Below the pieces are notes generated by a model. That model did no database searches. It saw only the letters and a program-made list of their open reading frames with translations, and was not told where the DNA came from. The position numbers and the translations under genes are program-made. 64,000 nt of DNA, from the sequence record OP172789, one strand, 5' to 3'. Positions 10,175 through 58,953 of this stretch are shown piece after piece (the stretch's first letter is position 1; each line of letters begins with the position of its first letter). Source of the DNA: Escherichia phage ECO71P1.

Positions 10175-10224
10175 GTATATTAATATAGTAAAACTCAGTT
10201 TAAAGCAATATAACTGGTGAACTA

Positions 10225-15282: not shown

Positions 15283-16278
15283 ATGAACATGAAACAACCT
15301 GTAATGATTATCGGCGGCGGACTGGCAGGACTTATCACCGCTTGTCACTTCCCGAACTCTGTTGTGTACGAAGCAGGGGAACGAGCGCAACAGCACAAGG
15401 CGCTGCTACGCTTTCGCAGCGAAGAAGTAAGCCGTATTACCGGAATCCCTTTTAAGGCTGTGACAGTTGACAAGGCTGTGTATTTTCGCGGCCACTACTA
15501 CCACGACCATTGCCCAATCAACCTTGCCAATATGTATTCCATGAAGGTCACCAATCAATTTGGCAGCCGTTCAATCATGAAGCTTAAGACTGCAACGCGT
15601 TATATTGCGCCTGATGACTTTTATGATCAGCTTGTCGACAAACTGGGTGACCGAATATTCTTTAATACTCCGGTTGATACTCTTTGCGGCTATAGCGAGA
15701 CGCCAATCATCAACACGTCGCCGCTGCCAGTCATGATGAAGCTGGCTGGGATTGATCAAAAGCTTGATTTCTCATTTGATAAAGCAAACATTCGTGTTTA
15801 CCGCTTTAAGATTAAACGTAAGTGTGATTTGTATCAGACAATTTACTTCCCTGACTACTCCGTCAGAACTTACCGCGCATCAATTACTGGTGACACGCTT
15901 ATCATTGAAACAATTCCTTTGGTCAGCGTGAGTGAAGCTGCAGTTGAAGCCGCTGGCGGCATCACTCGTTACCGTGACATGAAGCTGCGCGCAGAAGTCG
16001 ACGAAGTGTTGACAGCCTTTGGCCTCTCATGGAGCGACATCGCTCTTGAAGAAGTTGAAAAGGTCGACCAGAAATATGGCAAGATTGTCGACATTCCGAA
16101 AGACTTGCGACACGCCCTACTCCTGCAGCTGACTATGGATTTGAACGTGTTCAGTGTCGGTCGATTTGCTACCTGGCGCAACATTTTGCTTGATGACGTT
16201 GCCCATGACCTTGTTGAAGTTGAAAAACTCATCAAAGCAAATAACTATCAAAAATTTGCTTATATTGCTAATAAATAA
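15283..16278 (+). CDS. FAD/NAD(P)-binding Rossmann-fold oxidoreductase (flavoprotein-like)
   Basis: N-terminal dinucleotide-binding motif VMIIGGGLAGL...E; 331 aa; exact family unresolved. Confidence 0.55.
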   Translation: MNMKQPVMIIGGGLAGLITACHFPNSVVYEAGERAQQHKALLRFRSEEVSRITGIPFKAVTVDKAVYFRGHYYHDHCPINLANMYSMKVTNQFGSRSIMKLKTATRYIAPDDFYDQLVDKLGDRIFFNTPVDTLCGYSETPIINTSPLPVMMKLAGIDQKLDFSFDKANIRVYRFKIKRKCDLYQTIYFPDYSVRTYRASITGDTLIIETIPLVSVSEAAVEAAGGITRYRDMKLRAEVDEVLTAFGLSWSDIALEEVEKVDQKYGKIVDIPKDLRHALLLQLTMDLNVFSVGRFATWRNILLDDVAHDLVEVEKLIKANNYQKFAYIANK

Positions 16279-16279
16279 T

Positions 16280-16323
16280 TTGCTTTCTGCTTCAATGGGC
16301 GTATACTTTAATCATTGAAGCAG
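16280..16323 (+). promoter_or_regulatory. promoter (-35 TTGCTT, 16 bp, -10 TATACT) with 11-bp inverted repeat CTGCTTCAATG/CATTGAAGCAG bracketing the -10
   Basis: Read directly; perfect dyad. Confidence 0.45.
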
Positions 16324-16343
16324 AACTCATAGAGGAAACGAAA

Positions 16344-16790
16344 ATGAAACGAATCACTGGAATCGCGCTTGCCGCTACTGCTATTCTCGGCACCATGTAT
16401 ATGGAAGCAACTGAAGCTGCCATCCGCACTTCCGATTCAGTCGCTGTTTACGATTGCGAAGCGATGGACGGTAAGACCGCAGCAACGACTGGTGCGAAGA
16501 TTACCACTTACATCGGTGTGAATGAGCAAGAAGGTCTGAATATTCAGATTCAGGGATTCACAGGGAAAGGTGCCAACCGTACTCCGTGGATGCAACGTTT
16601 CACTTTCGTCCAGCCTCGTTCAACTGGCGGCTTTATCAATCTGATTGGTGAAAACCGTTCTGGTGCAGAAATCTTTACATCAATGAGTTCTAATAATGAA
16701 CCAAAGAAAAGTTTTCAGTTGCTTTATAACGCACAATTCGTTTATCATTGCACCTTCTCTGGTGATCAGCAACTAGTGAATTACCGTTAA
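16344..16790 (+). CDS. hypothetical exported protein (N-terminal signal-peptide-like segment, two Cys)
   Basis: MKRITGIALAATAILGTMYMEATEAA hydrophobic N-terminus; good RBS. Confidence 0.5.
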   Translation: MKRITGIALAATAILGTMYMEATEAAIRTSDSVAVYDCEAMDGKTAATTGAKITTYIGVNEQEGLNIQIQGFTGKGANRTPWMQRFTFVQPRSTGGFINLIGENRSGAEIFTSMSSNNEPKKSFQLLYNAQFVYHCTFSGDQQLVNYR

Positions 16791-16803
16791 TAGGACAATT
16801 AAA

Positions 16804-17577
16804 ATGAAAGTTGAATTAATTCGATACACCCAAGATGCACTTGACCTTTTGCTGGAAACAAAGAACACGCGCATGACTGGTAAGCCTGTCTCTGAGATGA
16901 CGGAATCAGAGAAGCAAGAGCATTGGCGCTACATGCTTGATACAATCAAGTCACCTTTTGACTTTGTGGACTATATCTTTGACATAACCGTTGTTTCAAA
17001 GAATATGACTCATCAGATGGTCCGAACACGCGCAGGCGCATATCAAGAACGCACCAGTCGCGCTCAGGAATCTTCTGCATTTGATGCGATTCGCCCTAAA
17101 GCATTTGAGCACCCTGACGGCTCCACAAGCGAGCTTGGCGAGAAGTGGGATGATGCGATGGCGACTATTGATGCCATATATCAAGAGCTTCGCGCGGCTG
17201 GCGCAGAGATTCAGGATGCGCGTGCCGTGTTGCCTTCTAATATGCAAACGCATATCATGGCAAAGTTCAACTTGCGCACGCTGCAGCAGATGGCGTCAAA
17301 CCGCTTGTGCACGCGCACTCAAGGCGAGTATCAAGAAGTATTCCGCGCAATGGTTGCGGAAGTCCTCAAGGTGCACCCGTGGGCTAATCCTTTGCTGCAG
17401 CCGCAATGCATCGGTATGGGTAAGTGTGCGTTTCCTCGTCACGGTAAAGCCCATTGCCCTTGGTATCGTGATTGGATGGATACCACTGCACAGCAGGAAG
17501 AGTTGCGCATTCAGTTTTGGGATGCCGCGCCAATCACCAACAATCCAGTTGCTAAAGATGGAGTATCAAAAGGATGA
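16804..17577 (+). CDS. thyX: ThyX-like flavin-dependent thymidylate synthase homologue with altered signature (RTR...TSR in place of RHR...SQRY)
   Basis: SKNMTHQMVRTRAGAYQERTSRAQ aligns to the ThyX RHRx7S block as recalled; 257 aa; translationally coupled to next gene. Confidence 0.6.
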   Translation: MKVELIRYTQDALDLLLETKNTRMTGKPVSEMTESEKQEHWRYMLDTIKSPFDFVDYIFDITVVSKNMTHQMVRTRAGAYQERTSRAQESSAFDAIRPKAFEHPDGSTSELGEKWDDAMATIDAIYQELRAAGAEIQDARAVLPSNMQTHIMAKFNLRTLQQMASNRLCTRTQGEYQEVFRAMVAEVLKVHPWANPLLQPQCIGMGKCAFPRHGKAHCPWYRDWMDTTAQQEELRIQFWDAAPITNNPVAKDGVSKG

Positions 17578-18446
17578 GTTTTAAAAATAACCAAATCTTG
17601 AACGTATTCGACCTTGACGGAACTCTGTTTGATGACCGTTGGCGCTTAGACCGCATCAAGATTGCAGGTCCGTTGTCAGACTATGATGACTATCACAGCG
17701 GTATTGGTTATGATCAGTTCTATCCTCACATTGCAGCAGCAGTAGAGTCAGCATCTCTTCGCGGTGAGGCGGTTGAATATTGGACTGCAAGGCCAGAAAA
17801 ATACAGACAAGTGACTTTTGAACGTCTGGACAATGTTTTTCCTTTTGATGAATTTACAATCAAGATGAGAGACTCTGGCGACAAACGTCCATCAACTATT
17901 ATGAAATCTGAATGGCTATCGCACGCTTTGCGGCACGGCGATTATCGAATCATCAATATATTCGACGACCGACAAGACGTACTCGCGCGGATGCAAGATG
18001 AAGCCTTGTATTATAATTCCGTTGCTCAAAATAAAATCGCTTTTACGTTTAATCTTTGCAAGGCAGGTGAAGTGGTGCAACAATTAGCAATTGATCCAAG
18101 CGCAACGGGGCAAGAAGAGACTAAGGCTGTGGAAATTGAACAATCTCCGGCAACCGCCGCCGATATTCTTGATGCGATGGCAGCAACCTTCCGTGAGCGC
18201 AACGCTGTCTATGGCGATAACGCTGTGATGGTAGGCCAGGTTATGCAGGTGCTTTTCCCTAATGGCGTAACGTTGAAAACGCCGGAAGACTACCACATGT
18301 GGCATCTGTTCGAGCTTAAGATTGTCAAGCTTACACGCTTTGCAATCAGCGGCCTGAAGCACGAAGACTCTATACACGACGATGGTGTTTACAGCGCCAT
18401 GTGTGAACGTCTTGTCAACACCCATAATATTAATTTCAATAAATAG
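17574..18446 (+). CDS. HAD-superfamily phosphatase domain fused to a C-terminal domain of unknown function
   Basis: N-terminal DLDGTL (HAD motif I); ATGA overlap with the ThyX-like gene. Confidence 0.55.
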   Translation: MSFKNNQILNVFDLDGTLFDDRWRLDRIKIAGPLSDYDDYHSGIGYDQFYPHIAAAVESASLRGEAVEYWTARPEKYRQVTFERLDNVFPFDEFTIKMRDSGDKRPSTIMKSEWLSHALRHGDYRIINIFDDRQDVLARMQDEALYYNSVAQNKIAFTFNLCKAGEVVQQLAIDPSATGQEETKAVEIEQSPATAADILDAMAATFRERNAVYGDNAVMVGQVMQVLFPNGVTLKTPEDYHMWHLFELKIVKLTRFAISGLKHEDSIHDDGVYSAMCERLVNTHNINFNK

Positions 18447-18484
18447 TTTACTTGTGCGTTTCGATGAGTTATATTTATCTCATC
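18447..18484 (+). promoter_or_regulatory. promoter (-35 TTTACT, 17 bp, -10 TATATT) with GATGAG/CTCATC dyad bracketing the -10, followed by CATCGAAACGAA leader
   Basis: Read directly; same architecture at 25423-25460. Confidence 0.45.
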
Positions 18485-18511
18485 GAAACGAAGTCCAAAA
18501 AGGATAAATAA

Positions 18512-19195
18512 ATGAAAAAAGTAATTGTTGTAACTGGCTGCAATTCCGGTCTTGGTAAATCCATTTTTGACACCCTTGGCGCTTACGGTCACGAAGTTGT
18601 CGGTATTGATTTGGACAACGGTTATGACATCCGTAACGCGAAACAGATGAAAGAGCTTCTCTCTCAATACGACGTAGAGGGCTTGATCAACTGCGCTGGC
18701 GTCAACTCCAACAACTGGTTTGAAGACGTTAACTACGAAGAGTTTAATCGCGTTATGCACACCAACGCCTTCTCTTTCGTTAACACGACTCAGGCCGCGC
18801 TGAAAAGTCTTATTGACAACAAAGGTTTTGTGATCAACATCGTTTCCAACGCTGCGCATATTCCTATGACGTCCAGCTTGTGTTATAATGCTTCCAAGGC
18901 CGCTGCGCTTATGATTAGCAAGCAGATGGCTCACGAGCTTACGCCTAAATACGGGATCACGGTCTTCTCTATTAGTCCTAACAAGTTGCGTGGCACTGGT
19001 ATGTCTAAACAGATTGAAGATGCTGTTTGCGCGACTCGCGGCTGGACTCCTGAGTATGCTGCTGAATACCAGAAAAAGGCGTTGATGAATGGATTGGAGA
19101 CTGAGCCGCAAGTAATTGCTGACTTCATTCGCCATATCTTAATTACGGGCGCATGGCGCTTTATGTCTGGTACTGATATTCCATTTGGGAAATAA
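18512..19195 (+). CDS. short-chain dehydrogenase/reductase (SDR) family oxidoreductase
   Basis: TGxxxGxG (VTGCNSGLGKS), NCAG, catalytic YNASK motifs. Confidence 0.75.
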   Translation: MKKVIVVTGCNSGLGKSIFDTLGAYGHEVVGIDLDNGYDIRNAKQMKELLSQYDVEGLINCAGVNSNNWFEDVNYEEFNRVMHTNAFSFVNTTQAALKSLIDNKGFVINIVSNAAHIPMTSSLCYNASKAAALMISKQMAHELTPKYGITVFSISPNKLRGTGMSKQIEDAVCATRGWTPEYAAEYQKKALMNGLETEPQVIADFIRHILITGAWRFMSGTDIPFGK

Positions 19196-19198
19196 ATC

Positions 19199-19414
19199 AT
19201 GAACAAAGCCTGGGTAGCGGTAATCGGTTTAGTGCTTCTTGTTGTATTAGGATACACAATCAAATTTGAAGTTCCAAATCCTGTTGAGCCTGACAAAAAG
19301 ATTGTCGTTGAAGTCCCAGGCGCTAAAGGTGAATTACCAAAACCTAAATTTGAAGTTGTCACACCCGCTCCTGAAAAGCAACAGGACGAAGACAACACAG
19401 TAATTAATCAATAA
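19199..19414 (+). CDS. small membrane-anchored protein with Pro/Lys/Glu-rich tail
   Basis: N-terminal hydrophobic helix WVAVIGLVLLVVLGY; 71 aa. Confidence 0.45.
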   Translation: MNKAWVAVIGLVLLVVLGYTIKFEVPNPVEPDKKIVVEVPGAKGELPKPKFEVVTPAPEKQQDEDNTVINQ

Positions 19415-19434
19415 TATTTAATTAAGGAAACAAA

Positions 19435-19986
19435 ATGCCACACTTTAAAATTGAACAAATCGCCCTGTCAATTCCAGATGCTCAGCGTGCACAGGATTTT
19501 CTGGCTAAAATCGGCCTGACAGAATGGTTCCATGATCATGTTGTTGCTACTGGTCGCGTATTTGAAAATGACGAGTTTAAAGGTCGTCGCGACGATTGCA
19601 CCAACGAAGCTGACTTGCGATTCAACTATCAGGCTGGCAACGGCACCGATGGCGGCGCTGGTAAGCCTCTTGAGCTTGAAATCCTTGACTACACAATGGG
19701 TTGCAACTGGATCAACGAAAACATCGACATGCTTGATGCGCACGATAATCAGGTCAGCCATCTTGGCATGCATGTGACTGCCGCTGAACTTGCTGAATGG
19801 CGTAAGTTCTTTAAAGAAGAAGGCATTCAGGTTGCGCAGGAAGTCGTAACTGACTCTCACACCAACCCAAATATTGCTGGTCAGCGTCGTTACAACTATG
19901 TGATCTTTGATACGCGTGAAATCATCGGTGTCGACCTTAAGTTCATTGTGCGGTTGAATCAAGACGGTACTCCGTACACTGCATAA
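19435..19986 (+). CDS. VOC (glyoxalase/bleomycin-resistance/dioxygenase)-like protein, tentative
   Basis: Size and N-terminal pattern reminiscent of VOC fold; weak assignment. Confidence 0.35.
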   Translation: MPHFKIEQIALSIPDAQRAQDFLAKIGLTEWFHDHVVATGRVFENDEFKGRRDDCTNEADLRFNYQAGNGTDGGAGKPLELEILDYTMGCNWINENIDMLDAHDNQVSHLGMHVTAAELAEWRKFFKEEGIQVAQEVVTDSHTNPNIAGQRRYNYVIFDTREIIGVDLKFIVRLNQDGTPYTA

Positions 19987-20002
19987 CGAATCGTGAATCT
20001 GT

Positions 20003-20027
20003 GGCCGTCCTAATGGGCGGCCTTTTT
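20003..20027 (+). terminator. rho-independent terminator (GGCCGTCC ... GGGCGGCC plus TTTTT)
   Basis: GC-rich hairpin followed by T5. Confidence 0.55.
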
Positions 20028-20040
20028 GTAGGAGGCCAAT

Positions 20041-20583
20041 GTGTTATTTCTTCCTTATGACTTCGAAACAACCGGATTAACCGTGCACCCGAAAGCGCCG
20101 CTTGGGATGCAGCCGCGCCCTATTGAATTTGCAGGCCTGTTGACGGACGGCAAAGAGATTCTTGAAACGTTCGAGTTCATAATCAACCCTGAAATCGTGA
20201 TTGAAGAAATCATCACAAAGATTACCGGATTAACAAATGAAGACCTTGAGTGCAATCCGCCATTCATCAATTTTGTTCCGCAGCTAAAAGAAATCTTCAA
20301 GAAGACTGATGCCACTATCGCGCACAACCATGCGTTCGATAAGAACATTCTTGATTATGCACTACAGCGCGAAGGACTTACACTTGATGATGTTAATTTC
20401 CCAGAAATAAACATCTGTACAGTTGAGCAAACCTTGCCTATTTTTGGCCGAAGAGTTAAGCTTCAAGAGCTGTATGAATTATATTTCGGAAAATATGAAC
20501 AGAAGCACCGTGCATTAGACGACGTAATATTACTGCACAAAGTCTGCCAACAAATTGGCGTATATGACATCTGGAGTAAATAA
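20041..20583 (+). CDS. DnaQ-like 3'-5' exonuclease (DEDDh proofreading subunit)
   Basis: Exo I DFETTG, Exo II HNHAFD, Exo III HRALDDV; AGGAGG RBS; GTG start. Confidence 0.8.
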   Translation: MLFLPYDFETTGLTVHPKAPLGMQPRPIEFAGLLTDGKEILETFEFIINPEIVIEEIITKITGLTNEDLECNPPFINFVPQLKEIFKKTDATIAHNHAFDKNILDYALQREGLTLDDVNFPEINICTVEQTLPIFGRRVKLQELYELYFGKYEQKHRALDDVILLHKVCQQIGVYDIWSK

Positions 20584-23480
20584 TGTTTCCACAATTGAGA
20601 GTTCGCAGCGGTTACACGTTCAAAGAAGTATATGGACGGCATCCTGAAATTATAGCACGGCTCAAAGAGTTGGGCTGCGAAGTCGCGGCATTAGTTGATA
20701 ACAATACATGGGGTCACGTTCGCTGGGAAAAGGAATGTCAGAAGAATGATATCAAGCCTATGTTCGGCATGGAAATTCCAATCATCGACCCTGATGCGGA
20801 CCCGAAAAAGGGATTCAAACCGAAGGCTTGGATATTGGCGCTTGACCTGAAATCTTTTTACAACGCTACGACACTTGCAACACAGCGCGGCGGACTGACC
20901 CGTGCAGAGTTCGGGGCGCTGGATGGCGTCGTTAAATTCTGTGGCGGGGCTGTGGAGTTGCTGCGACCAGAGGACTACGATTATATAGACGTCAACCCAT
21001 CATCGTTCCTTTTGGCCAAGCGCCAGGTATTGGCTCACCGCAACAACGGAAGGCCGCTGGTTTTAACCGGATACAACCACATGCCTTCACCTGAGCACGT
21101 TGACTTTGCTTATGCTTGGGAAGTGCGCGACACGGTCAAGCCGCACTGCATCGTTGACGCGGAAGACTTGTGCAAACAGCTTAAAGGAATCCTGACCGAA
21201 GATGAGTTGAATCAAGCAACGGCCAATGCGGTTGATATTGCAAACGGAATCGTTGGGCTTGGCCTGAAGCTGCGCAAGGCACCGATTATCCACCTTGCTG
21301 GTGACATGGTAAAGCTTGCTCGTGAGGGTATGGAGTACCGCCTTAAGGCAGGTCACATCAAAGAATGGACTCAGGAATACGAGGACCGATTCAACGAAGA
21401 GATTCACCAGATTCAGCTGAAAGACTTTGACTCATACTTTCTGGTGGTAGCGGACCTTGTACGATTCGCAAAAACAAAAATGCTTGTCGGACCCGCTCGC
21501 GGCTCATCGGCTGGTTCACTGGTTTGTTATTGCCTCGGCATCACGGAAGTTGACCCAATCCCGTATAAGCTGCTGTTCGCCCGATTCATCGACGTAAGCC
21601 GCGCCGACCTTCCTGATATTGATATTGACTTTGAGGATACCAAACGCTATATGGTGTTTGATTACCTTAAAGAAAAATACGGCGAAATGAACGTTGCAAA
21701 GCTTGGCAACATCAACACTCTTAAGGCCAACTCAGTAATGGCTCAGGTTGGTAAGAAATTCAACATTGGATATCACGAAACGGCCAACATTAAAAACGCA
21801 TTGCTTGAATACTCATCTGGTGACGCCCGTTATGGTCACGGCCTGGAGGATACCTTTGCAACAACTACCACGGGTCAAGAGTTTGTGGCGAAATATCCTG
21901 ACGCCGCGCGTTGCATGGGTGACCTTGAGATTCACCCGTCCCACACAGGTGTTCACGCAGCGGGAATCATCGTGTGTAATGATCCAATCTCTGATTACTG
22001 TACTGTAACGGCGGAAGGGATTGCGCAAATTGATAAGCCTGACAGCGAATACCTTAACCTTTTGAAGCTTGATGCATTGGGTCTTCGCACCCTCGGAATC
22101 ATTTCTGATACTGGCGTGATAGACGCTGAAACGCTGTACGGAATCAAGCTTGATGATCAAAGCGTCCTTGACATCCTTAACGAAAACAAGATGTCAGGAA
22201 TATTCCAGTTTGAAGGCGACGCTGTACGCTCAGTAACCAACTTTGTGCACGTTGATAACTTTAACAAAATCGATAACCTGACAGCACTTGGCAGACCTGG
22301 CCCGTTGTCATCCGGTATGGCCCAGAAATACATCGAACGCGCGGCAGGACGTGCGCCGATTGAGTACGACGTGCCGCAGCTTGAGCCGTACTTAAAAGAG
22401 ACTTACGGCGTGTTTCTTTACCAAGAGCAAATCATGGCCGTGGTTAAAGAGATTGGTTCATTCGACTGGGCGAAAACATCAGCTGTACGTAAGGCAATGT
22501 CAGGTCGTAAGGGTGAAGAATACTTTAACAAGCTTGGCGAAGACTTCGTTGCAGGCGCAATAAATAACGGCGTACCGGAAGCGGATGCAAGAAAGCTTTG
22601 GCAGGCGATGGCGACGTTCGGGTCATGGGGCTTTAACAAGTCACACTCCGTGTCATACGCGGTCGTGACTTACTGGACCTTGTGGCTTAAACGACACTAC
22701 CCGCTGGAATTTGCCGCTGCTTGCTTACGCGCTGCTAAGGACGAAGACCAGACGATTGCGATATTACGTGAACTTGCAAAGGAAGGCGTGGATTATGTGC
22801 CAATCGACCCTGATCACTCTTCAATGAACTGGACCATCGCTAACGGAAAGCTAATCGGCGGCATCATGAACGCTAAAGGGTACGGAATGGTAAAAGCGAT
22901 GAAGTACATCGAAGCACGTGAAGCCGGAACCTTAACGCAAAAACAAAAGGACGCATTGGCCAATGCTGAAGTCAAATACGGCGACCTTACAGAGATGCAC
23001 ACCAAGTTCGGTTGGGCGTATAATGACCCCTATCTGATTGGCGTTACTTCCGGTGCTTCAATACGCCAGATGAAGGAAGTCGGTGATGACGAGCGTGCAA
23101 TAGTGATCGGCAAGCTGACCAAGAAAGTGCTGGCTGACGAGAACGAAGCAACACGCATCCGTAAACGTCTTGAGCGCGGCATTTATACAAAGCACGGCAA
23201 ACTTAAAAAGGGTCTTCAAGCTGATGGTCGCTACGCAGAGTTTGACCAGTATGGAAACAAGCTTGAGACTCAGTTCATTGACCTTATGTGCAAGGACGAT
23301 TCGACCGACTCGCCAATGCGCTTCAGGATTCGCCCAGAGAAGTTCCAGAAATACGGTAAATACATTGCAGAGAACGTCGGGAACGGCGCATTCTTCCTGA
23401 TGAAAGGCCGCAAGCTTGAAGGTATTGACATGTTTATCGTCGACGTGATCAAACAGGTGTATCCAGATGGCAACAAATAA
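20583..23480 (+). CDS. dnaE: DNA polymerase III alpha (DnaE)-like replicative polymerase
   Basis: N-terminal PHP-like LRVRSGYTF and core motif GPARGSSAGSLVCYCLGITEVDPI; 965 aa. Confidence 0.85.
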   Translation: MFPQLRVRSGYTFKEVYGRHPEIIARLKELGCEVAALVDNNTWGHVRWEKECQKNDIKPMFGMEIPIIDPDADPKKGFKPKAWILALDLKSFYNATTLATQRGGLTRAEFGALDGVVKFCGGAVELLRPEDYDYIDVNPSSFLLAKRQVLAHRNNGRPLVLTGYNHMPSPEHVDFAYAWEVRDTVKPHCIVDAEDLCKQLKGILTEDELNQATANAVDIANGIVGLGLKLRKAPIIHLAGDMVKLAREGMEYRLKAGHIKEWTQEYEDRFNEEIHQIQLKDFDSYFLVVADLVRFAKTKMLVGPARGSSAGSLVCYCLGITEVDPIPYKLLFARFIDVSRADLPDIDIDFEDTKRYMVFDYLKEKYGEMNVAKLGNINTLKANSVMAQVGKKFNIGYHETANIKNALLEYSSGDARYGHGLEDTFATTTTGQEFVAKYPDAARCMGDLEIHPSHTGVHAAGIIVCNDPISDYCTVTAEGIAQIDKPDSEYLNLLKLDALGLRTLGIISDTGVIDAETLYGIKLDDQSVLDILNENKMSGIFQFEGDAVRSVTNFVHVDNFNKIDNLTALGRPGPLSSGMAQKYIERAAGRAPIEYDVPQLEPYLKETYGVFLYQEQIMAVVKEIGSFDWAKTSAVRKAMSGRKGEEYFNKLGEDFVAGAINNGVPEADARKLWQAMATFGSWGFNKSHSVSYAVVTYWTLWLKRHYPLEFAAACLRAAKDEDQTIAILRELAKEGVDYVPIDPDHSSMNWTIANGKLIGGIMNAKGYGMVKAMKYIEAREAGTLTQKQKDALANAEVKYGDLTEMHTKFGWAYNDPYLIGVTSGASIRQMKEVGDDERAIVIGKLTKKVLADENEATRIRKRLERGIYTKHGKLKKGLQADGRYAEFDQYGNKLETQFIDLMCKDDSTDSPMRFRIRPEKFQKYGKYIAENVGNGAFFLMKGRKLEGIDMFIVDVIKQVYPDGNK

Positions 23481-23889
23481 CCGTGAACAGAAATACATAT
23501 TCGTGCCTTTGAAGAAGCATTCAGAATCAATATTGAAGCTTCAACGAATCGAATCGATGACTGGTGATGGCGTGCCGGACGTAATCGGCACCAACCGGAA
23601 AGGTCGCGGCTTTTGGCTTGAAATGAAGTTCTTTGAATCGTGGCCTGCAAGGGCCAACACTGCACCTTTCAGAAATGCATTTGAGAAAGGTCAGTGCAGC
23701 TTTCTTTCTTCGTGGAATGATTGGAAATACCCATCATTTGTTTTGCTTAAAGTCGATTCTGAGAAGATGTTTTATTTAGTCCACCCTTCGATTGAATTAA
23801 AGCGTTATAATATTGCAGACGTTCAACGTGAGATAATCGTGAAGGGAACTATTCATCACATCATCAAGTATTTAGAGGAATTGTCATGA
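23467..23889 (+). CDS. VRR-NUC-like nuclease
   Basis: PDVIGT ... LEMK pattern; conserved pairing with the downstream SNF2 helicase. Confidence 0.5.
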   Translation: MATNNREQKYIFVPLKKHSESILKLQRIESMTGDGVPDVIGTNRKGRGFWLEMKFFESWPARANTAPFRNAFEKGQCSFLSSWNDWKYPSFVLLKVDSEKMFYLVHPSIELKRYNIADVQREIIVKGTIHHIIKYLEELS

Positions 23890-25409
23890 AAACACAAGGG
23901 ATGCGCCACCAGCTTCTGGCGCTTGATAAAGCAGGCCGCAGAAAATACTTTGCCTATTTCATGGAACAGGGTCTTGGTAAAACTTGGACCGCTTTGGCAG
24001 AGTTTGAAAAGCACTTCGCCGCTGGCGCGTTCGATGCCATGGTCGTCATCGCTCCAAACGGTGTCCACTCAAACTGGATTCGTCGTGAAGCACCAGAACA
24101 CCTTTCCATCAAGTGGATTGGGCACTACTGGCGCGGCAATGACAAGATGAAGACTAAAAAGGGCAAGGCGCTTTGGGAGAAGATGTTTGCTGATCACTAC
24201 CCTGAAGGCGAAGTGCCTGCGCGCATCTTCTCATTCAACATTGATACCGTCAACACACCAGTCGGTTATCAACACATAGAGTCGGTCTTGAAGAAATACC
24301 GCTGCCTGATGATCATCGACGAATCAACGCGCATCAAGAATAACACAGCCAAACGCTCCATCAAGGTTGTGGAATTGGGACGGCTGGCAAAGGCCCGTCG
24401 AATCCTTTCCGGTACGCCGTTGCCGCGCTCGCCTGCGGATATTTACATGCAATACCACTTCCTTGAAGCAGGATTGCTCGGCACCAAATCATTCCGTGCC
24501 TTTAACTCTGAATTCACGGTGCTACTTGAAGCGCACGACCCAGAGATGCAAGCCATCCTCAAGAAAATCGGCGGCAATGGCTATGGGATTCCGCAAGTGC
24601 CGCGCAAAGACCAGTTTGGCCGACCGATGTACAAGAACCTTGACAAGCTTATCCGGCTGATGGAACCGCACTATTTTCGTGCAACAAAAGCAGAATACTT
24701 GCCTGACCTTCCAGAGAAGGTGTATAAGTTTATCGACTTCGAGTTGTCGCCTAAACAACGCGATGTTTACGATGAACTCAAGAATGAGTACAACTATTTG
24801 ATGGAATACAAGGGCGAAGAAGAAAACGTCAAGTTTGAGATGATCGCATCGCGCACCAAGATGAAGCAGGTTACATCCGGCTTTGTCAAGGTGTATGATG
24901 AGATGGTCTACATGGAAGACAACCCACGCTTCACGGCCTTTAAGGATTATGTGGAAGGGGTGTTGGAAGACGACCCAGAGCGCAAATTCATCGTTTGGGC
25001 CATCTTTAAGGAAGAGATGAACCAGATTAAGGAATGGCTTGAGTCTGAAGGCGTGGTCACTGGTGTATACAACGGTGAAACATCAAAAGAGCAGCGCGAG
25101 TTCTTGATTGATGACTTCCAGAAAAACACAGTCGCGAATGGTGGAACACAGGTATTGGTTTGCCACGCTGCAGCGGCAGGCATCGGCATCACACTTACCG
25201 CCGCTGACTTGGCAATCTATTATTCTTGCAACTATGACAATGAGTTGCGCAAGCAATCCGAAGACCGAAATCACCGCATCGGCACCAAATCAAGCGTGTT
25301 GTATGTTGATTTTATTGGTGTTGATACCATCGACGAAGAAATTCAGCGTTCACTCAGTATGAAGTCAATGCTTGCTGATCACATCCTCGACGGCAAAAAG
25401 ATGAATTAA
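23886..25409 (+). CDS. SNF2-family (SF2) helicase/ATPase
   Basis: Motif I GLGKTWTA, motif II IIDESTRIKN, C-terminal helicase domain. Confidence 0.8.
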   Translation: MKTQGMRHQLLALDKAGRRKYFAYFMEQGLGKTWTALAEFEKHFAAGAFDAMVVIAPNGVHSNWIRREAPEHLSIKWIGHYWRGNDKMKTKKGKALWEKMFADHYPEGEVPARIFSFNIDTVNTPVGYQHIESVLKKYRCLMIIDESTRIKNNTAKRSIKVVELGRLAKARRILSGTPLPRSPADIYMQYHFLEAGLLGTKSFRAFNSEFTVLLEAHDPEMQAILKKIGGNGYGIPQVPRKDQFGRPMYKNLDKLIRLMEPHYFRATKAEYLPDLPEKVYKFIDFELSPKQRDVYDELKNEYNYLMEYKGEEENVKFEMIASRTKMKQVTSGFVKVYDEMVYMEDNPRFTAFKDYVEGVLEDDPERKFIVWAIFKEEMNQIKEWLESEGVVTGVYNGETSKEQREFLIDDFQKNTVANGGTQVLVCHAAAAGIGITLTAADLAIYYSCNYDNELRKQSEDRNHRIGTKSSVLYVDFIGVDTIDEEIQRSLSMKSMLADHILDGKKMN

Positions 25410-25422
25410 TATCAAAAATAAT

Positions 25423-25460
25423 TTGACTTGTCAGGTAAGATGAGTCATAATTATTTCATC
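25423..25460 (+). promoter_or_regulatory. promoter (-35 TTGACT, 17 bp, -10 CATAAT) with GATGAG/TTCATC dyad around the -10 and CATCGAAACGAA leader
   Basis: Read directly. Confidence 0.5.
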
Positions 25461-25483
25461 GAAACGAAACAGAGGAATACAAA

Positions 25484-25747
25484 ATGGTACGCATCCTTGA
25501 ACGTTACAAAAATGAAGCTACTGGCGCAATCGCGTTCAAACGTCTTTTGGTCAAAGAAATTGACGGCATGTTCCGCGTTGTAAAAGAGTTTGATTATGGA
25601 AACGGTGCTGGGGTGAATACCGTCATTATGCCTGGCATCAAGGCATATAAAACTTTGAAAGGCGCTGAGAAGGCTTTGGCGGCTTGGAAACCTGAACGTT
25701 ATCAAATGACCCGTGTTGAAGGGCTAATGCAAGAAGGTAAAATATGA
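25484..25747 (+). CDS. hypothetical protein (87 aa)
   Basis: ORF track; good RBS. Confidence 0.5.
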   Translation: MVRILERYKNEATGAIAFKRLLVKEIDGMFRVVKEFDYGNGAGVNTVIMPGIKAYKTLKGAEKALAAWKPERYQMTRVEGLMQEGKI

Positions 25748-42678: not shown

Positions 42679-43175
42679 TAAATTGACCCCAATATGCTCT
42701 GCACCACGCCTTTTGCAATTTGCGATGTGCTCTGTGCGCCGCCGTAGCTGGCAAACACGAATGTGTATCTGTTTGTCTTGCGACGACCTGATTGCTCAAT
42801 GGAGTCGCCAAGCGGACCGCTGATGATGGTCCCGTTCGAAAATGCTACTCTGCCGCCGTCAGGATATGTAATAAGCATTGATGTGACATCCTGGATAGGA
42901 AGCCACTTGAATCCGCCTTTACGAGCGGAAAGCAAAAGCTTTAGGTTTATGTCGTCTTCAGTGTTTGGGATCACTGCAATGGATACGCGAACGACGGCGG
43001 CCTTGTCATAAATACAAATGCCGCCGTCGTAAGTAAGTTGATAGCCTACTGATTCAACTTCCTCAATAATTAGCGAATCCTGGTCATCAGACAAAGAACT
43101 GATATTCAGCCCAACAGGAAAAGATTGGAGAGCGACAATTCTAATGCTTGTGCCAAATCCACTAATATTGACCAT
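42678..43175 (-). CDS. tail tube-like protein, paralogue B
   Basis: N-terminus MVNISGFGTSIRIVA... paralogous to 44126-44593; size about 165 aa. Confidence 0.5.
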   Translation of the reverse strand: MVNISGFGTSIRIVALQSFPVGLNISSLSDDQDSLIIEEVESVGYQLTYDGGICIYDKAAVVRVSIAVIPNTEDDINLKLLLSARKGGFKWLPIQDVTSMLITYPDGGRVAFSNGTIISGPLGDSIEQSGRRKTNRYTFVFASYGGAQSTSQIAKGVVQSILGSI

Positions 43176-51887: not shown

Positions 51888-51994
51888 CCACCCTCAAATA
51901 AGTATTGTGTATTATATCTAATGAAAAAAACTTAGGCAAACAATAATTATGGTTTGAATATGTATAACAACCGATATAGCCGCGCCTTAATTAG

Positions 51995-52300
51995 TGTGAT
52001 ACGGATGATACGGATAAAATGAGGCGTATTTTTATCCGTATCGGTGTATAAGCCGCGCTATCACTGGTGTGCTACGGATGATACGGATGATACGGATACT
52101 TTTCATATATAAGAGTTTATAAAAAAATAAAATTAAATTAGATATATAATTTTAAATTAATTTATTTGAATTCCTATAAAGTATCGCGGCAACGCGTATC
52201 ATCCGTATCATCCGTAAGATTCTTTTGAAAACAACTACTTACTTGATACGGATGATACGTCATTATACGCGTAAAATCCTGCGGCAATCCATTGCCAGGC
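51995..52300. repeat. iteron region B: five clusters of the 9-bp unit CGTATCATC/GATGATACG in both orientations plus GCCGCG-containing boxes and an AT-rich tract
   Basis: Copies at 51998-52016 (inverted), 52033-52044, 52073-52100 (inverted, three units), 52195-52216 (direct), 52245-52261 (inverted). Confidence 0.8.
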
Positions 52301-56608: not shown

Positions 56609-56770
56609 TGTTAACGCCACCTGACAGTGAAAGGGAATCAATCTATATTATAAATATTCATGTGTTTGTAAGCAAATGATATGTATGGTGATCATAAATA
56701 GTTCATAAAATATTTTGCTTTTGTATCATTTTGAGTTATATTTTAGTTAACCAAACGAAAGGAGATTGAA

Positions 56771-58887: not shown

Positions 58888-58953
58888 ATTATAGTTTGCT
58901 TGAGACAGCTATATCAAGTAAAATTATGATTCCAGCTTAGTAGTGGATAAAGG

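Follow-up and report, generated by a model that had tools for sequence, protein, structure and literature searches.

Promoter-early stem-loops (PeSLs) were defined in the T4-like coliphages RB49 and phi1, where the stem-loops are mostly placed between the -35 and -10 hexamers or overlap the -10 (Arbiol et al. 2010, PMC2839356). For RB49/phi1, lacZ fusions demonstrated the promoter activity of PeSLs as well as the terminator activity of one stem-loop (PMC2839356). The description was later extended to PST/T4 and nt-1/KVP40, the PST/T4 consensus being TTTACW-N17-TAYWAT (Comeau et al. 2014, PMC4122927). We analysed a 64,000 nucleotide (nt) stretch of Escherichia phage ECO71P1 (sequence record OP172789), called the window below, in which three plus-strand promoters, sites 1, 2 and 3, are overlaid by inverted repeats. 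These sites are probably PeSL-type composite cassettes, consisting of a host-type promoter, an overlaid inverted repeat and a leader, in a new phage lineage. Each cassette would comprise a sigma-70-type promoter, presumably read by the host RNA polymerase and preceded by an AT-rich tract, an inverted repeat lying either between the -35 and -10 or across the -10, and a short unstructured leader carrying the Shine-Dalgarno sequence.

The likeness to the RB49/phi1 PeSLs extends to the sigma-70-type promoter, the AT-rich upstream tract, the overlaid stem-loop and the Shine-Dalgarno sequence and start codon on the 3' side; the leader CATCGAAACGAA(AC) of RB49 is common to sites 2 and 3, and site 2 fits the PST/T4 consensus. 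Unlike the PeSL phages, the window phage is not T4-like: it is one of the wifceviruses (genus Wifcevirus), E. coli myophages of about 68 kb, among which Mansfield and WFH are about 96% identical to the window. A further likeness is found in bacterial coupled promoter-terminator elements (bioRxiv 10.64898/2026.08.19.745784), the idea being that adjacent transcription units have overlapping initiation and termination signals; they differ in residing in bacterial genomes.

Promoters and inverted repeats at sites 1-3

The initial annotation of this DNA had proposed three plus-strand promoters whose dyads straddle the -10 and which carry a common GAAACGAA leader before the ribosome-binding site. 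The promoters themselves are present, as TTGCTT-16-TATACT, TTTACT-17-TATATT and TTGACT-17-CATAAT at sites 1, 2 and 3, respectively. All three sites are intergenic gaps of 65-74 bp bounded by stop and start codons. Their features are the following.

Site 1
16279-16285, plus strand: -35 box TTTGCTT (TTGCTT at 16280-16285), behind the AT-rich tract aataaataa, with a 16-nt spacer to TATACT
16285-16297, plus strand: 5' arm TTCTGCTTCAATG of a perfect 13-bp inverted repeat, in the promoter spacer
16302-16307, plus strand: -10 hexamer TATACT, within the 15-nt loop
16313-16325, plus strand: 3' arm CATTGAAGCAGAA, spanning about +1 to +12 of the local transcript (predicted start)
16331-16346, plus strand: Shine-Dalgarno sequence AGAGGA, then ATG 16344 of a 148-amino acid (aa) protein; GAAACGAA at 16335-16342 overlaps the Shine-Dalgarno sequence

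Site 2
18447-18452, plus strand: -35 hexamer TTTACT, with a 17-nt spacer to TATATT
18457-18468, plus strand: 5' arm CGTTTCGATGAG of a perfect 12-bp inverted repeat
18470-18475, plus strand: -10 hexamer TATATT, within the 10-nt loop
18479-18492, plus strand: conserved leader CTCATCGAAACGAA, the start of which is the 3' arm CTCATCGAAACG (18479-18490)
18500-18514, plus strand: Shine-Dalgarno sequence AAGGA, then ATG 18512 of the short-chain dehydrogenase

Site 3
25423-25428, plus strand: -35 hexamer TTGACT, behind the AT-rich tract atcaaaaataa, with a 17-nt spacer to the -10 (10/12 hexamer matches)
25424-25447, plus strand: main hairpin, TGACTTGTC (25424-25432), loop aggtaa, GATGAGTCA (25439-25447)
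25439-25460, plus strand: weak alternative dyad straddling the -10, GATGAG (25439-25444) and TTCATC (25455-25460)
25446-25451, plus strand: -10 hexamer CATAAT
25457-25486, plus strand: conserved leader CATCGAAACGAAACAGAGGAA, Shine-Dalgarno sequence AGAGGA (25471-25476), ATG 25484 of an 87-aa protein

In case of sites 1 and 2 the dyad straddles the -10 as annotated, the 13-bp repeat of site 1 being longer than had been noted. The predicted RNA folds have -18.9 kcal/mol at both sites (z -5.8 and -5.9, respectively), and both sites fold equally well on the two strands. [quoted passage not shown] In this main hairpin positions 2-6 of the -35 and the next spacer bases pair with a stretch ending at position 2 of the -10, and it is the minimum-energy fold of the site (RNA -11.7 kcal/mol, z -2.9). 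It was also listed by a simple scan for intrinsic-terminator-like structures, with 9 pairs (2 G·U), a 6-nt loop and the tail TAATTATTTC.

Three perfect inverted repeats that combine arms of 12 bp or more with a loop of 3-20 nt are present in the window, against 0.05 in 300 mononucleotide shuffles, and sites 1 and 2 are two of the three. A significant hairpin was found in 3 of the 16 intergenic promoter candidates of the window, and these are sites 1-3 only. No Rfam family matched at the gathering score when the whole window was scanned. A shorter, 8-bp inverted repeat, AAGCAAAT/ATTTGCTT, stands at 16235-16261, where the gene preceding site 1 ends, and places a second TTTGCTT box about 25 nt before the -35 of site 1.

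The octamer GAAACGAA occurs four times in the window against 3.7 expected, i.e. at chance level, and all four copies are at sites 1-3. As a genome-wide motif it was rejected on this count and on the loss of the site 1 copy in the Wifcevirus phage TH35. The common leader holds for sites 2 and 3, where the octamer is contained in a homologous 12-mer, CATCGAAACGAA, and where the two sites are alike over about 46 nt (TTnACTTGT...GATGAGTnATAnTTATnTCATCGAAACGAA); at site 2 part of the octamer falls within the 3' arm. The copy at site 1 looks coincidental, since the Shine-Dalgarno sequence AGAGGAAACGAA is overlapped and not preceded by it, and TH35 has GAAATGAAG in its place.

The dyads had been read as the operator of a dimeric phage or host repressor, which would bind over the -10 and switch off the three genes together. 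The arms at about -25 to -13 and +1 to +12 would indeed occlude the RNA polymerase; at sites 1 and 2 they form perfect palindromes, which do not vary between the Wifcevirus genomes read. However, the site 1 arms (TTCTGCTTCAATG) are unrelated to the GATGAG... arms of sites 2 and 3, thus one repressor cannot serve all three sites, and the half-sites stand 28, 22 and 16 bp apart, measured between their centres, at sites 1, 2 and 3. The sites were inspected for likeness to Fur or PurR boxes by eye only, and nothing convincing was seen. Together with the unconserved orthologous stems and the covariation of site 3 presented below, the unrelated arms and variable spacing make a shared operator improbable. 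Of the common promoter class that had been suggested, the sigma-70-type promoter, the dyad lying over its -10 and the leader shared by sites 2 and 3 can be retained; the one shared repressor operator is not supported.

A dyad centred on the -10 is also the common feature of -10-overlapping operators and of the E. coli promoter for which Horwitz and Loeb, in 1988, reportedly observed repression by a cruciform over the -10. In a switch of the latter type supercoiling would extrude the dyads of sites 1 and 2, the -10 would come to lie in a single-stranded loop and the promoter would depend on topology. The perfect 13- and 12-bp arms, the AT-rich centres, the stability of the single-strand DNA hairpins (-11.9 and -13.6 kcal/mol, z -6 to -7) and the equal folding of both strands are in line with such a switch. 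The loops of 15 and 10 nt, however, are far larger than those of readily extruding cruciforms, so extrusion is unlikely, and the comparisons described in the next section lower the chances of this explanation further; we consider it highly improbable.

Conservation of the arms and covariation of the site 3 hairpin

A 10-kb query around the sites was matched by 28 Wifcevirus genomes (Mansfield, WFH, ECML-117, FEC19 and others) at 93-97% identity and, more distantly, by Serratia and Pantoea phages; a more sensitive search added Xanthomonas phages and about 150 PB1-like Pseudomonas phages. Across the 28 Wifcevirus records the identity of the site regions is 93-100%. The 71-nt region of site 1 is 100% identical in 24 of the 28, against 91-97% in the surrounding genome region. 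In the divergent TH35 site 1 carries about six changes, three in the loop and three in the leader, and none in the arms or the hexamers. Among the Wifcevirus loci that were read, the only differences at site 2 concern the final base of the loop, the number of A residues in the A-run of the leader and, in TH35, one base of the -10 hexamer. In the nine Wifcevirus genomes read at these sites, the arms of sites 1 and 2 are constant, and in the site 3 hairpin the loop alone varies among wifceviruses (aggtaa, acggaa or atggaa).

The arms of sites 1 and 2 might have no function of their own and be by-products, left for example by a template-switch 'palindrome correction' in replication or by hitch-hiking on a mobile cassette, with only the promoter and the leader under selection. 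Each dyad appears to join one sequence known in relatives to one found in Wifcevirus only, as inverted copying would leave. At site 1 the 5' arm is similar to the spacer of the orthologous promoter of Pantoea phage Kyle (TTGCTTTCTGCTCAAGGATG), and the 3' arm has a counterpart in Wifcevirus only. At site 2 the 3' arm is the leader that is present in Kyle (TATCTCATCttAAACGAA), Serratia phage MTx (TATCTaATttCAACGAAGT) and the PB1-like phage R12 (CTCATCGAAACG) too; the 5' arm is restricted to Wifcevirus and has no counterpart in Kyle or MTx, R12 having GGTGAG at the same place. The perfection of the arms is likewise what a recent event would give. This origin is nevertheless unlikely: the arms are constant in the nine genomes though the surrounding region differs by 3-9%, the approximately six substitutions of TH35 avoid all 26 arm positions of site 1 (roughly p = 0.03), and every orthologous promoter of the other genera keeps some hairpin.

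The orthologous gaps were read in Serratia phages MTx, MyoSmar and Hera, Erwinia phage TropicalSun, Pantoea phages Kyle and PA1, Salmonella phage PCSE1, Xanthomonas phage Carpasina and PB1-like R12, the genera including Myosmarvirus, Kylevirus, Carpasinavirus and Pbunavirus. They hold sigma-70-type promoters with hairpins, the stems of which are of unrelated sequence and lie mostly in the spacer. Examples of these hairpins are given below.

MTx: TTGACGatGGCGCtattaaGCGCCATAAT; TTGACTgcaGGCCAaggaTGGCCGATAAT; TTGCCGTCgcttggatatGACGGCATAAT
Kyle: TTGACGCCtCTtccaaaGgGGCGTATTCT
Carpasina: TTGCCCTGGtgagatatCCAGGGCATACT

Further lineages, obtained by a helicase-based scan of IMG/VR, also have a promoter with a hairpin, for example TTGCCGTAAGTttgcACTTACGGCATACT in contig L043; in contig L025 CATAAT is flanked by GGGTTAC and GTAACCC, with GAAACGAA coming after them. 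The arrangement in R12 is TTTACT-N17-TAGTAT-tcc-CTCATCGAAACGcGAAAC, with GGTGAG ahead. The weak bracket GRTGAG-N10/11-YTCATC therefore recurs in sites 2 and 3 and in this distant phage, which speaks for an operator. Apart from the recurrence of GRTGAG/YTCATC in R12, however, the orthologous stems differ both in sequence and in position, and with 4-10 bp they are too short for extrusion as cruciforms.

The site 3 hairpin was compared in 15 readily aligned sequences, pairing the bases from position 2 of the -35 onward with those from position 2 of the -10 backward. In this register 84% of the positions were paired, against 32-47% with a shifted partner; the covariation score was 0.518 as compared with 0.07-0.13 in the shifted controls, and none of 500 shuffles reached it. 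Changes on both sides were found in 7 of the 10 pairs. Promoter-like matches in seven genomes numbered 452, and only seven of them had at least 8 in-register pairs, five of these being orthologues of site 3. The internal non-Watson-Crick pairs comprised nine G·U, one C·A and one A·A. Since the opposite strand has an A·C mismatch wherever the sense strand has G·U, this bias favours a structure of the sense strand, that is, of read-through RNA. At the level of the aligned sequences, the site 3 stem is shown to be selected as a pairing structure with RNA-type wobble pairs and, as far as we could find, this is the first comparative evidence of selection on a promoter-embedded hairpin of such kind.

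These results bear on both DNA-level explanations. The change of the site 3 stem by compensation, with G·U pairs, is to be expected of an RNA hairpin and speaks against an operator, and sites 1-3 differ from the -10-overlapping operators in this covariation as well as in the missing common half-site and the variable spacing. In case of the cruciform, the sense-strand G·U pairs of the site 3 family would be A·C mismatches in the other strand. Pairing of the same register can be seen elsewhere in the window, at 58896-58924 (plus strand), where in a divergent intergenic region the promoter-like sequence TTGCTTgagacagctatatcaagTAAAAT has 7 in-register pairs linking the -35 to the -10.

The leader in other phage families

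The leader of site 2 is present in R12, Drexlerviridae, KP27, RB16 and RB49 as well. With site 2 as the query the T1-like phages P817 and BEK2 were matched (AAAGCCCttcgGGGCTTTtcctgTATATTgatCTCATCGAAACGAAACacaaaaagg...ATG); in these the same leader comes after a terminator hairpin and a -10, and the genes downstream are unrelated. A cassette of the P817/BEK2 type, used as a query in turn, matched 845 phage records including the T4-like KP27 and RB16, part of these matches being owed to the generic hairpin portion. The 47-nt -10 and leader of site 3 matched 674 records, among them Drexlerviridae with up to 92.5% over 40 nt, KP15-like phages with 86.5% and RB49 with 87%; a 17-nt run of the site 3 leader, ATCGAAACGAAACAGAG, is exact in the KP27 cassette (19/20 through AA). 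The record of KP27 annotates a 'terminator' overlapping a 'putative middle promoter' on this cassette, whereas the RB16 and Drexlerviridae cassettes are unannotated.

The cassettes of KP27, RB16 and Drexlerviridae (P817, BEK2, JLBYU41, Solomon) resemble sites 2 and 3 in the -10 and leader module, for example TATTACacacATCGAAACGAAACagagaaAGGA in KP27, and in having a hairpin directly upstream of the -10. They differ in having canonical GC-rich terminators as hairpins, U-tracts being present in some of these, in lacking a well-spaced -35 and in their unrelated downstream genes. An upstream box, ATAGCACTTTTTGTTAAA, is also common to the cassettes of KP27, RB16, JLBYU41 and Solomon, before the hairpin (L101 1453-1475; L102 2917-2935; L104 661-682; L105 659-680), so the cassette is conserved between the T4-like and T1-like families over about 90 nt.

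In the intergenic cassettes of RB49 a perfect sigma-70 promoter is combined with a dyad that straddles or overlaps the -10 and with the leader ATCGAAACGAA, in the pattern TTGACA...GGGGGTAgTAAGATACTCCCATCGAAACGAAAC...AGGAG...ATG. The exact 13-mer ATCGAAACGAAAC occurs in RB49 after TTGACA and a dyad over the -10. Three examples of RB49 PeSLs are the following.

RB49, first example: TTGACActgaataacGGGGGTAgTAAGATACTCCCATCGAAACGAAACaaAGGAG...ATG
RB49, second example: TTGACAgcatgaaacGGGGGTAgTAATATACCCCCATCGAAACGAAAT...
RB49, third example: TTGACAccggatcGGGGATATagCATAATATCCCCATCGAAACGAGAT...

The core CATC-AAACG, whose distance from the -10 is fixed, is invariant in sites 2 and 3, R12, three Drexlerviridae, KP27, RB16 and the three RB49 PeSLs. 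Since the -10 and leader module is common to unrelated phage families, it behaves as a portable cassette. Judged by their sequences, sites 2 and 3 are paralogous copies of the -10 and CATCGAAACGAA leader module, and site 1 is an analogous, Wifcevirus-specific version. The same comparison weakens the case for an operator: RB49 PeSLs with this leader have G-run/C-run arms, and the YTCATC half belongs to the leader, which is conserved even where the 5' arm is missing, as in Drexlerviridae and KP27. The idea that the leader travels with a homologous downstream gene was rejected, the P817 and window proteins being unrelated. A full-text literature search for ATCGAAACGAA returned unrelated primer sequences only.

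Two linked readings that go further are possible, though rather doubtful. In the first, the -10 and CATCGAAACGAAAC module would be a portable expression cassette passed between lytic phages that are unrelated and infect enterobacteria or Pseudomonas, namely T1-like phages, several T4-like genera, Wifcevirus and one PB1-like phage; its invariant core would be a functional element in itself, acting for example as a start-site or 5' untranslated region signal read by a host factor. In the second, the site 3 hairpin between the -35 and -10 would be a self-insulating terminator-promoter, a post-helicase promoter hairpin of the Wifcevirus-Pbunavirus lineage kept by compensatory evolution, in which the -10 would double as the A/U tract of the terminator.

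Elsewhere in the window, at 56715-56770 (plus strand), a TTGCTT-N16-TATATT promoter is followed by the leader CCAAACGAAAGGAG, which resembles the RB49 PeSL leader CCGAAACGAAAGGAG; there is no hairpin at this locus. Most -35 boxes of about ten intergenic promoters (e.g. near 10208, 11396, 12574, 16280 and 56715) read TTTGCTTT(A/C/T), which is as close to the T4 MotA box TGCTTtA as to TTGACA.

Candidate role and gene context of the cassettes

For PeSL-type cassettes the following role can be proposed. Local transcripts would start about 7 nt past the -10 and would contain the 3' arm only, hence no hairpin; read-through RNA coming from the upstream gene alone would have both arms and fold. Since only read-through RNA contains both arms, the hairpin would be a signal for upstream transcripts, and it may attenuate read-through or stabilise the RNA that results from it. 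Attenuation or termination, with the A/U-rich -10 serving as a poor U-tract, would be the most plausible option at site 3 and in the GC-rich orthologues. A protective 3' structure or a processing structure would be the more likely option at sites 1 and 2, where a U-tract is missing. Every gene block would then be given a fresh transcription level, set by its own promoter.

Several observations weigh against the assignment to PeSL-type cassettes. Sites 1 and 2 would be poor intrinsic terminators, since their loops are long (15 and 10 nt), their stems are AT-rich and a U-tract is missing, and their perfect Watson-Crick arms give no information on the strand or on RNA versus DNA. Canonical terminators stand separately in the same module (15178, 20003, 27239 and 29434). 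The region of site 1 was matched in Wifcevirus only, without homology to the PeSL leaders. The window has two or three copies as compared with dozens in the PeSL phages, and the sites occupy a replication module that is conserved, their positions staying the same from genus to genus, while PeSLs are found in hyperplastic regions beside orphan genes, where they border insertions or deletions that separate close relatives. No insertions or deletions border the sites among nine Wifcevirus genomes (the window and eight others), and no experimental promoter data were found in the literature on Wifcevirus and vB_Eco4M-7. The few copies, conserved positions and lack of bordering insertions or deletions mean that the recombination or shuffling role of PeSLs is not evidenced in the window, and neither are mini-circles. 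The stems differ as well: at sites 1 and 2 they are rich in AT and enclose long loops, in RB49 they consist of a G-run, a loop and a C-run. Furthermore, PeSL repeats are conserved over about 100 bp, and in the window only the shorter resemblance of sites 2 and 3 was found.

Intrinsic termination at sites 1 and 2 was rejected as unlikely because of the long loops and the lack of a U-tract; their tails are CTCATAGAGG and AAGTCCAAAA, and neither site is in the list of the terminator-like scan. These two hairpins may have a role in RNA stability or processing, or none.

The gene block holding the three sites is on the plus strand and contains replication and nucleotide-metabolism genes. Site 1 lies between the gene of a 331-aa protein, labelled UDP-galactopyranose mutase in the Mansfield record, and that of the 148-aa protein, which has a signal-peptide-like N-terminus. 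Site 2 is preceded by a phosphatase/polynucleotide-kinase-like gene and followed by the gene annotated initially as a short-chain dehydrogenase; the Pfam search bore this out (adh_short, E 1e-31) and also confirmed the phosphatase domain. Site 3 lies between the helicase gene and that of the 87-aa protein. In the same Pfam search no family was found for the 331-aa, 148-aa and 87-aa proteins. Behind the dehydrogenase gene a 71-aa gene (19199-19414) is present in only some wifceviruses, and the alignments of many relatives break near 19205.

Two more repeats were seen in the window. The intergenic region 51888-52173 has three copies of a 38-nt repeat (51978-52097), ending in tandem GATACGGAT units, a perfect 13-bp inverted repeat, GATACGGATAAAA (52007-52019) and TTTTATCCGTATC (52030-52042), and a very AT-rich stretch adjoining; it looks like an iteron array, a replication origin or a regulator-binding array. 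The other is a perfect inverted repeat of 11 bp, ACGACGGCGGC/GCCGCCGTCGT, at 42991-43030; its loop measures 18 nt, and it falls within a coding region of the minus strand.

Sites 1-3 can be annotated as promoter/stem-loop cassettes in Wifcevirus, and recognising such cassettes avoids the mis-annotation of their dyads as operators. Promoter-embedded hairpins of this kind had previously been noted by eye only; as far as we found, the spread of the leader across families and the deep covariation of the -35/-10 hairpin go beyond the existing descriptions. The cassettes would be compact, insulated expression units, which may be reused in phage engineering. With the leader found in T1-like and KP15-like phages, RB16, RB49, Wifcevirus and one PB1-like genome, the idea of the PeSL is extended outside the T4-like phages, and this distribution suggests that regulatory cassettes, and not genes alone, move between phage families.

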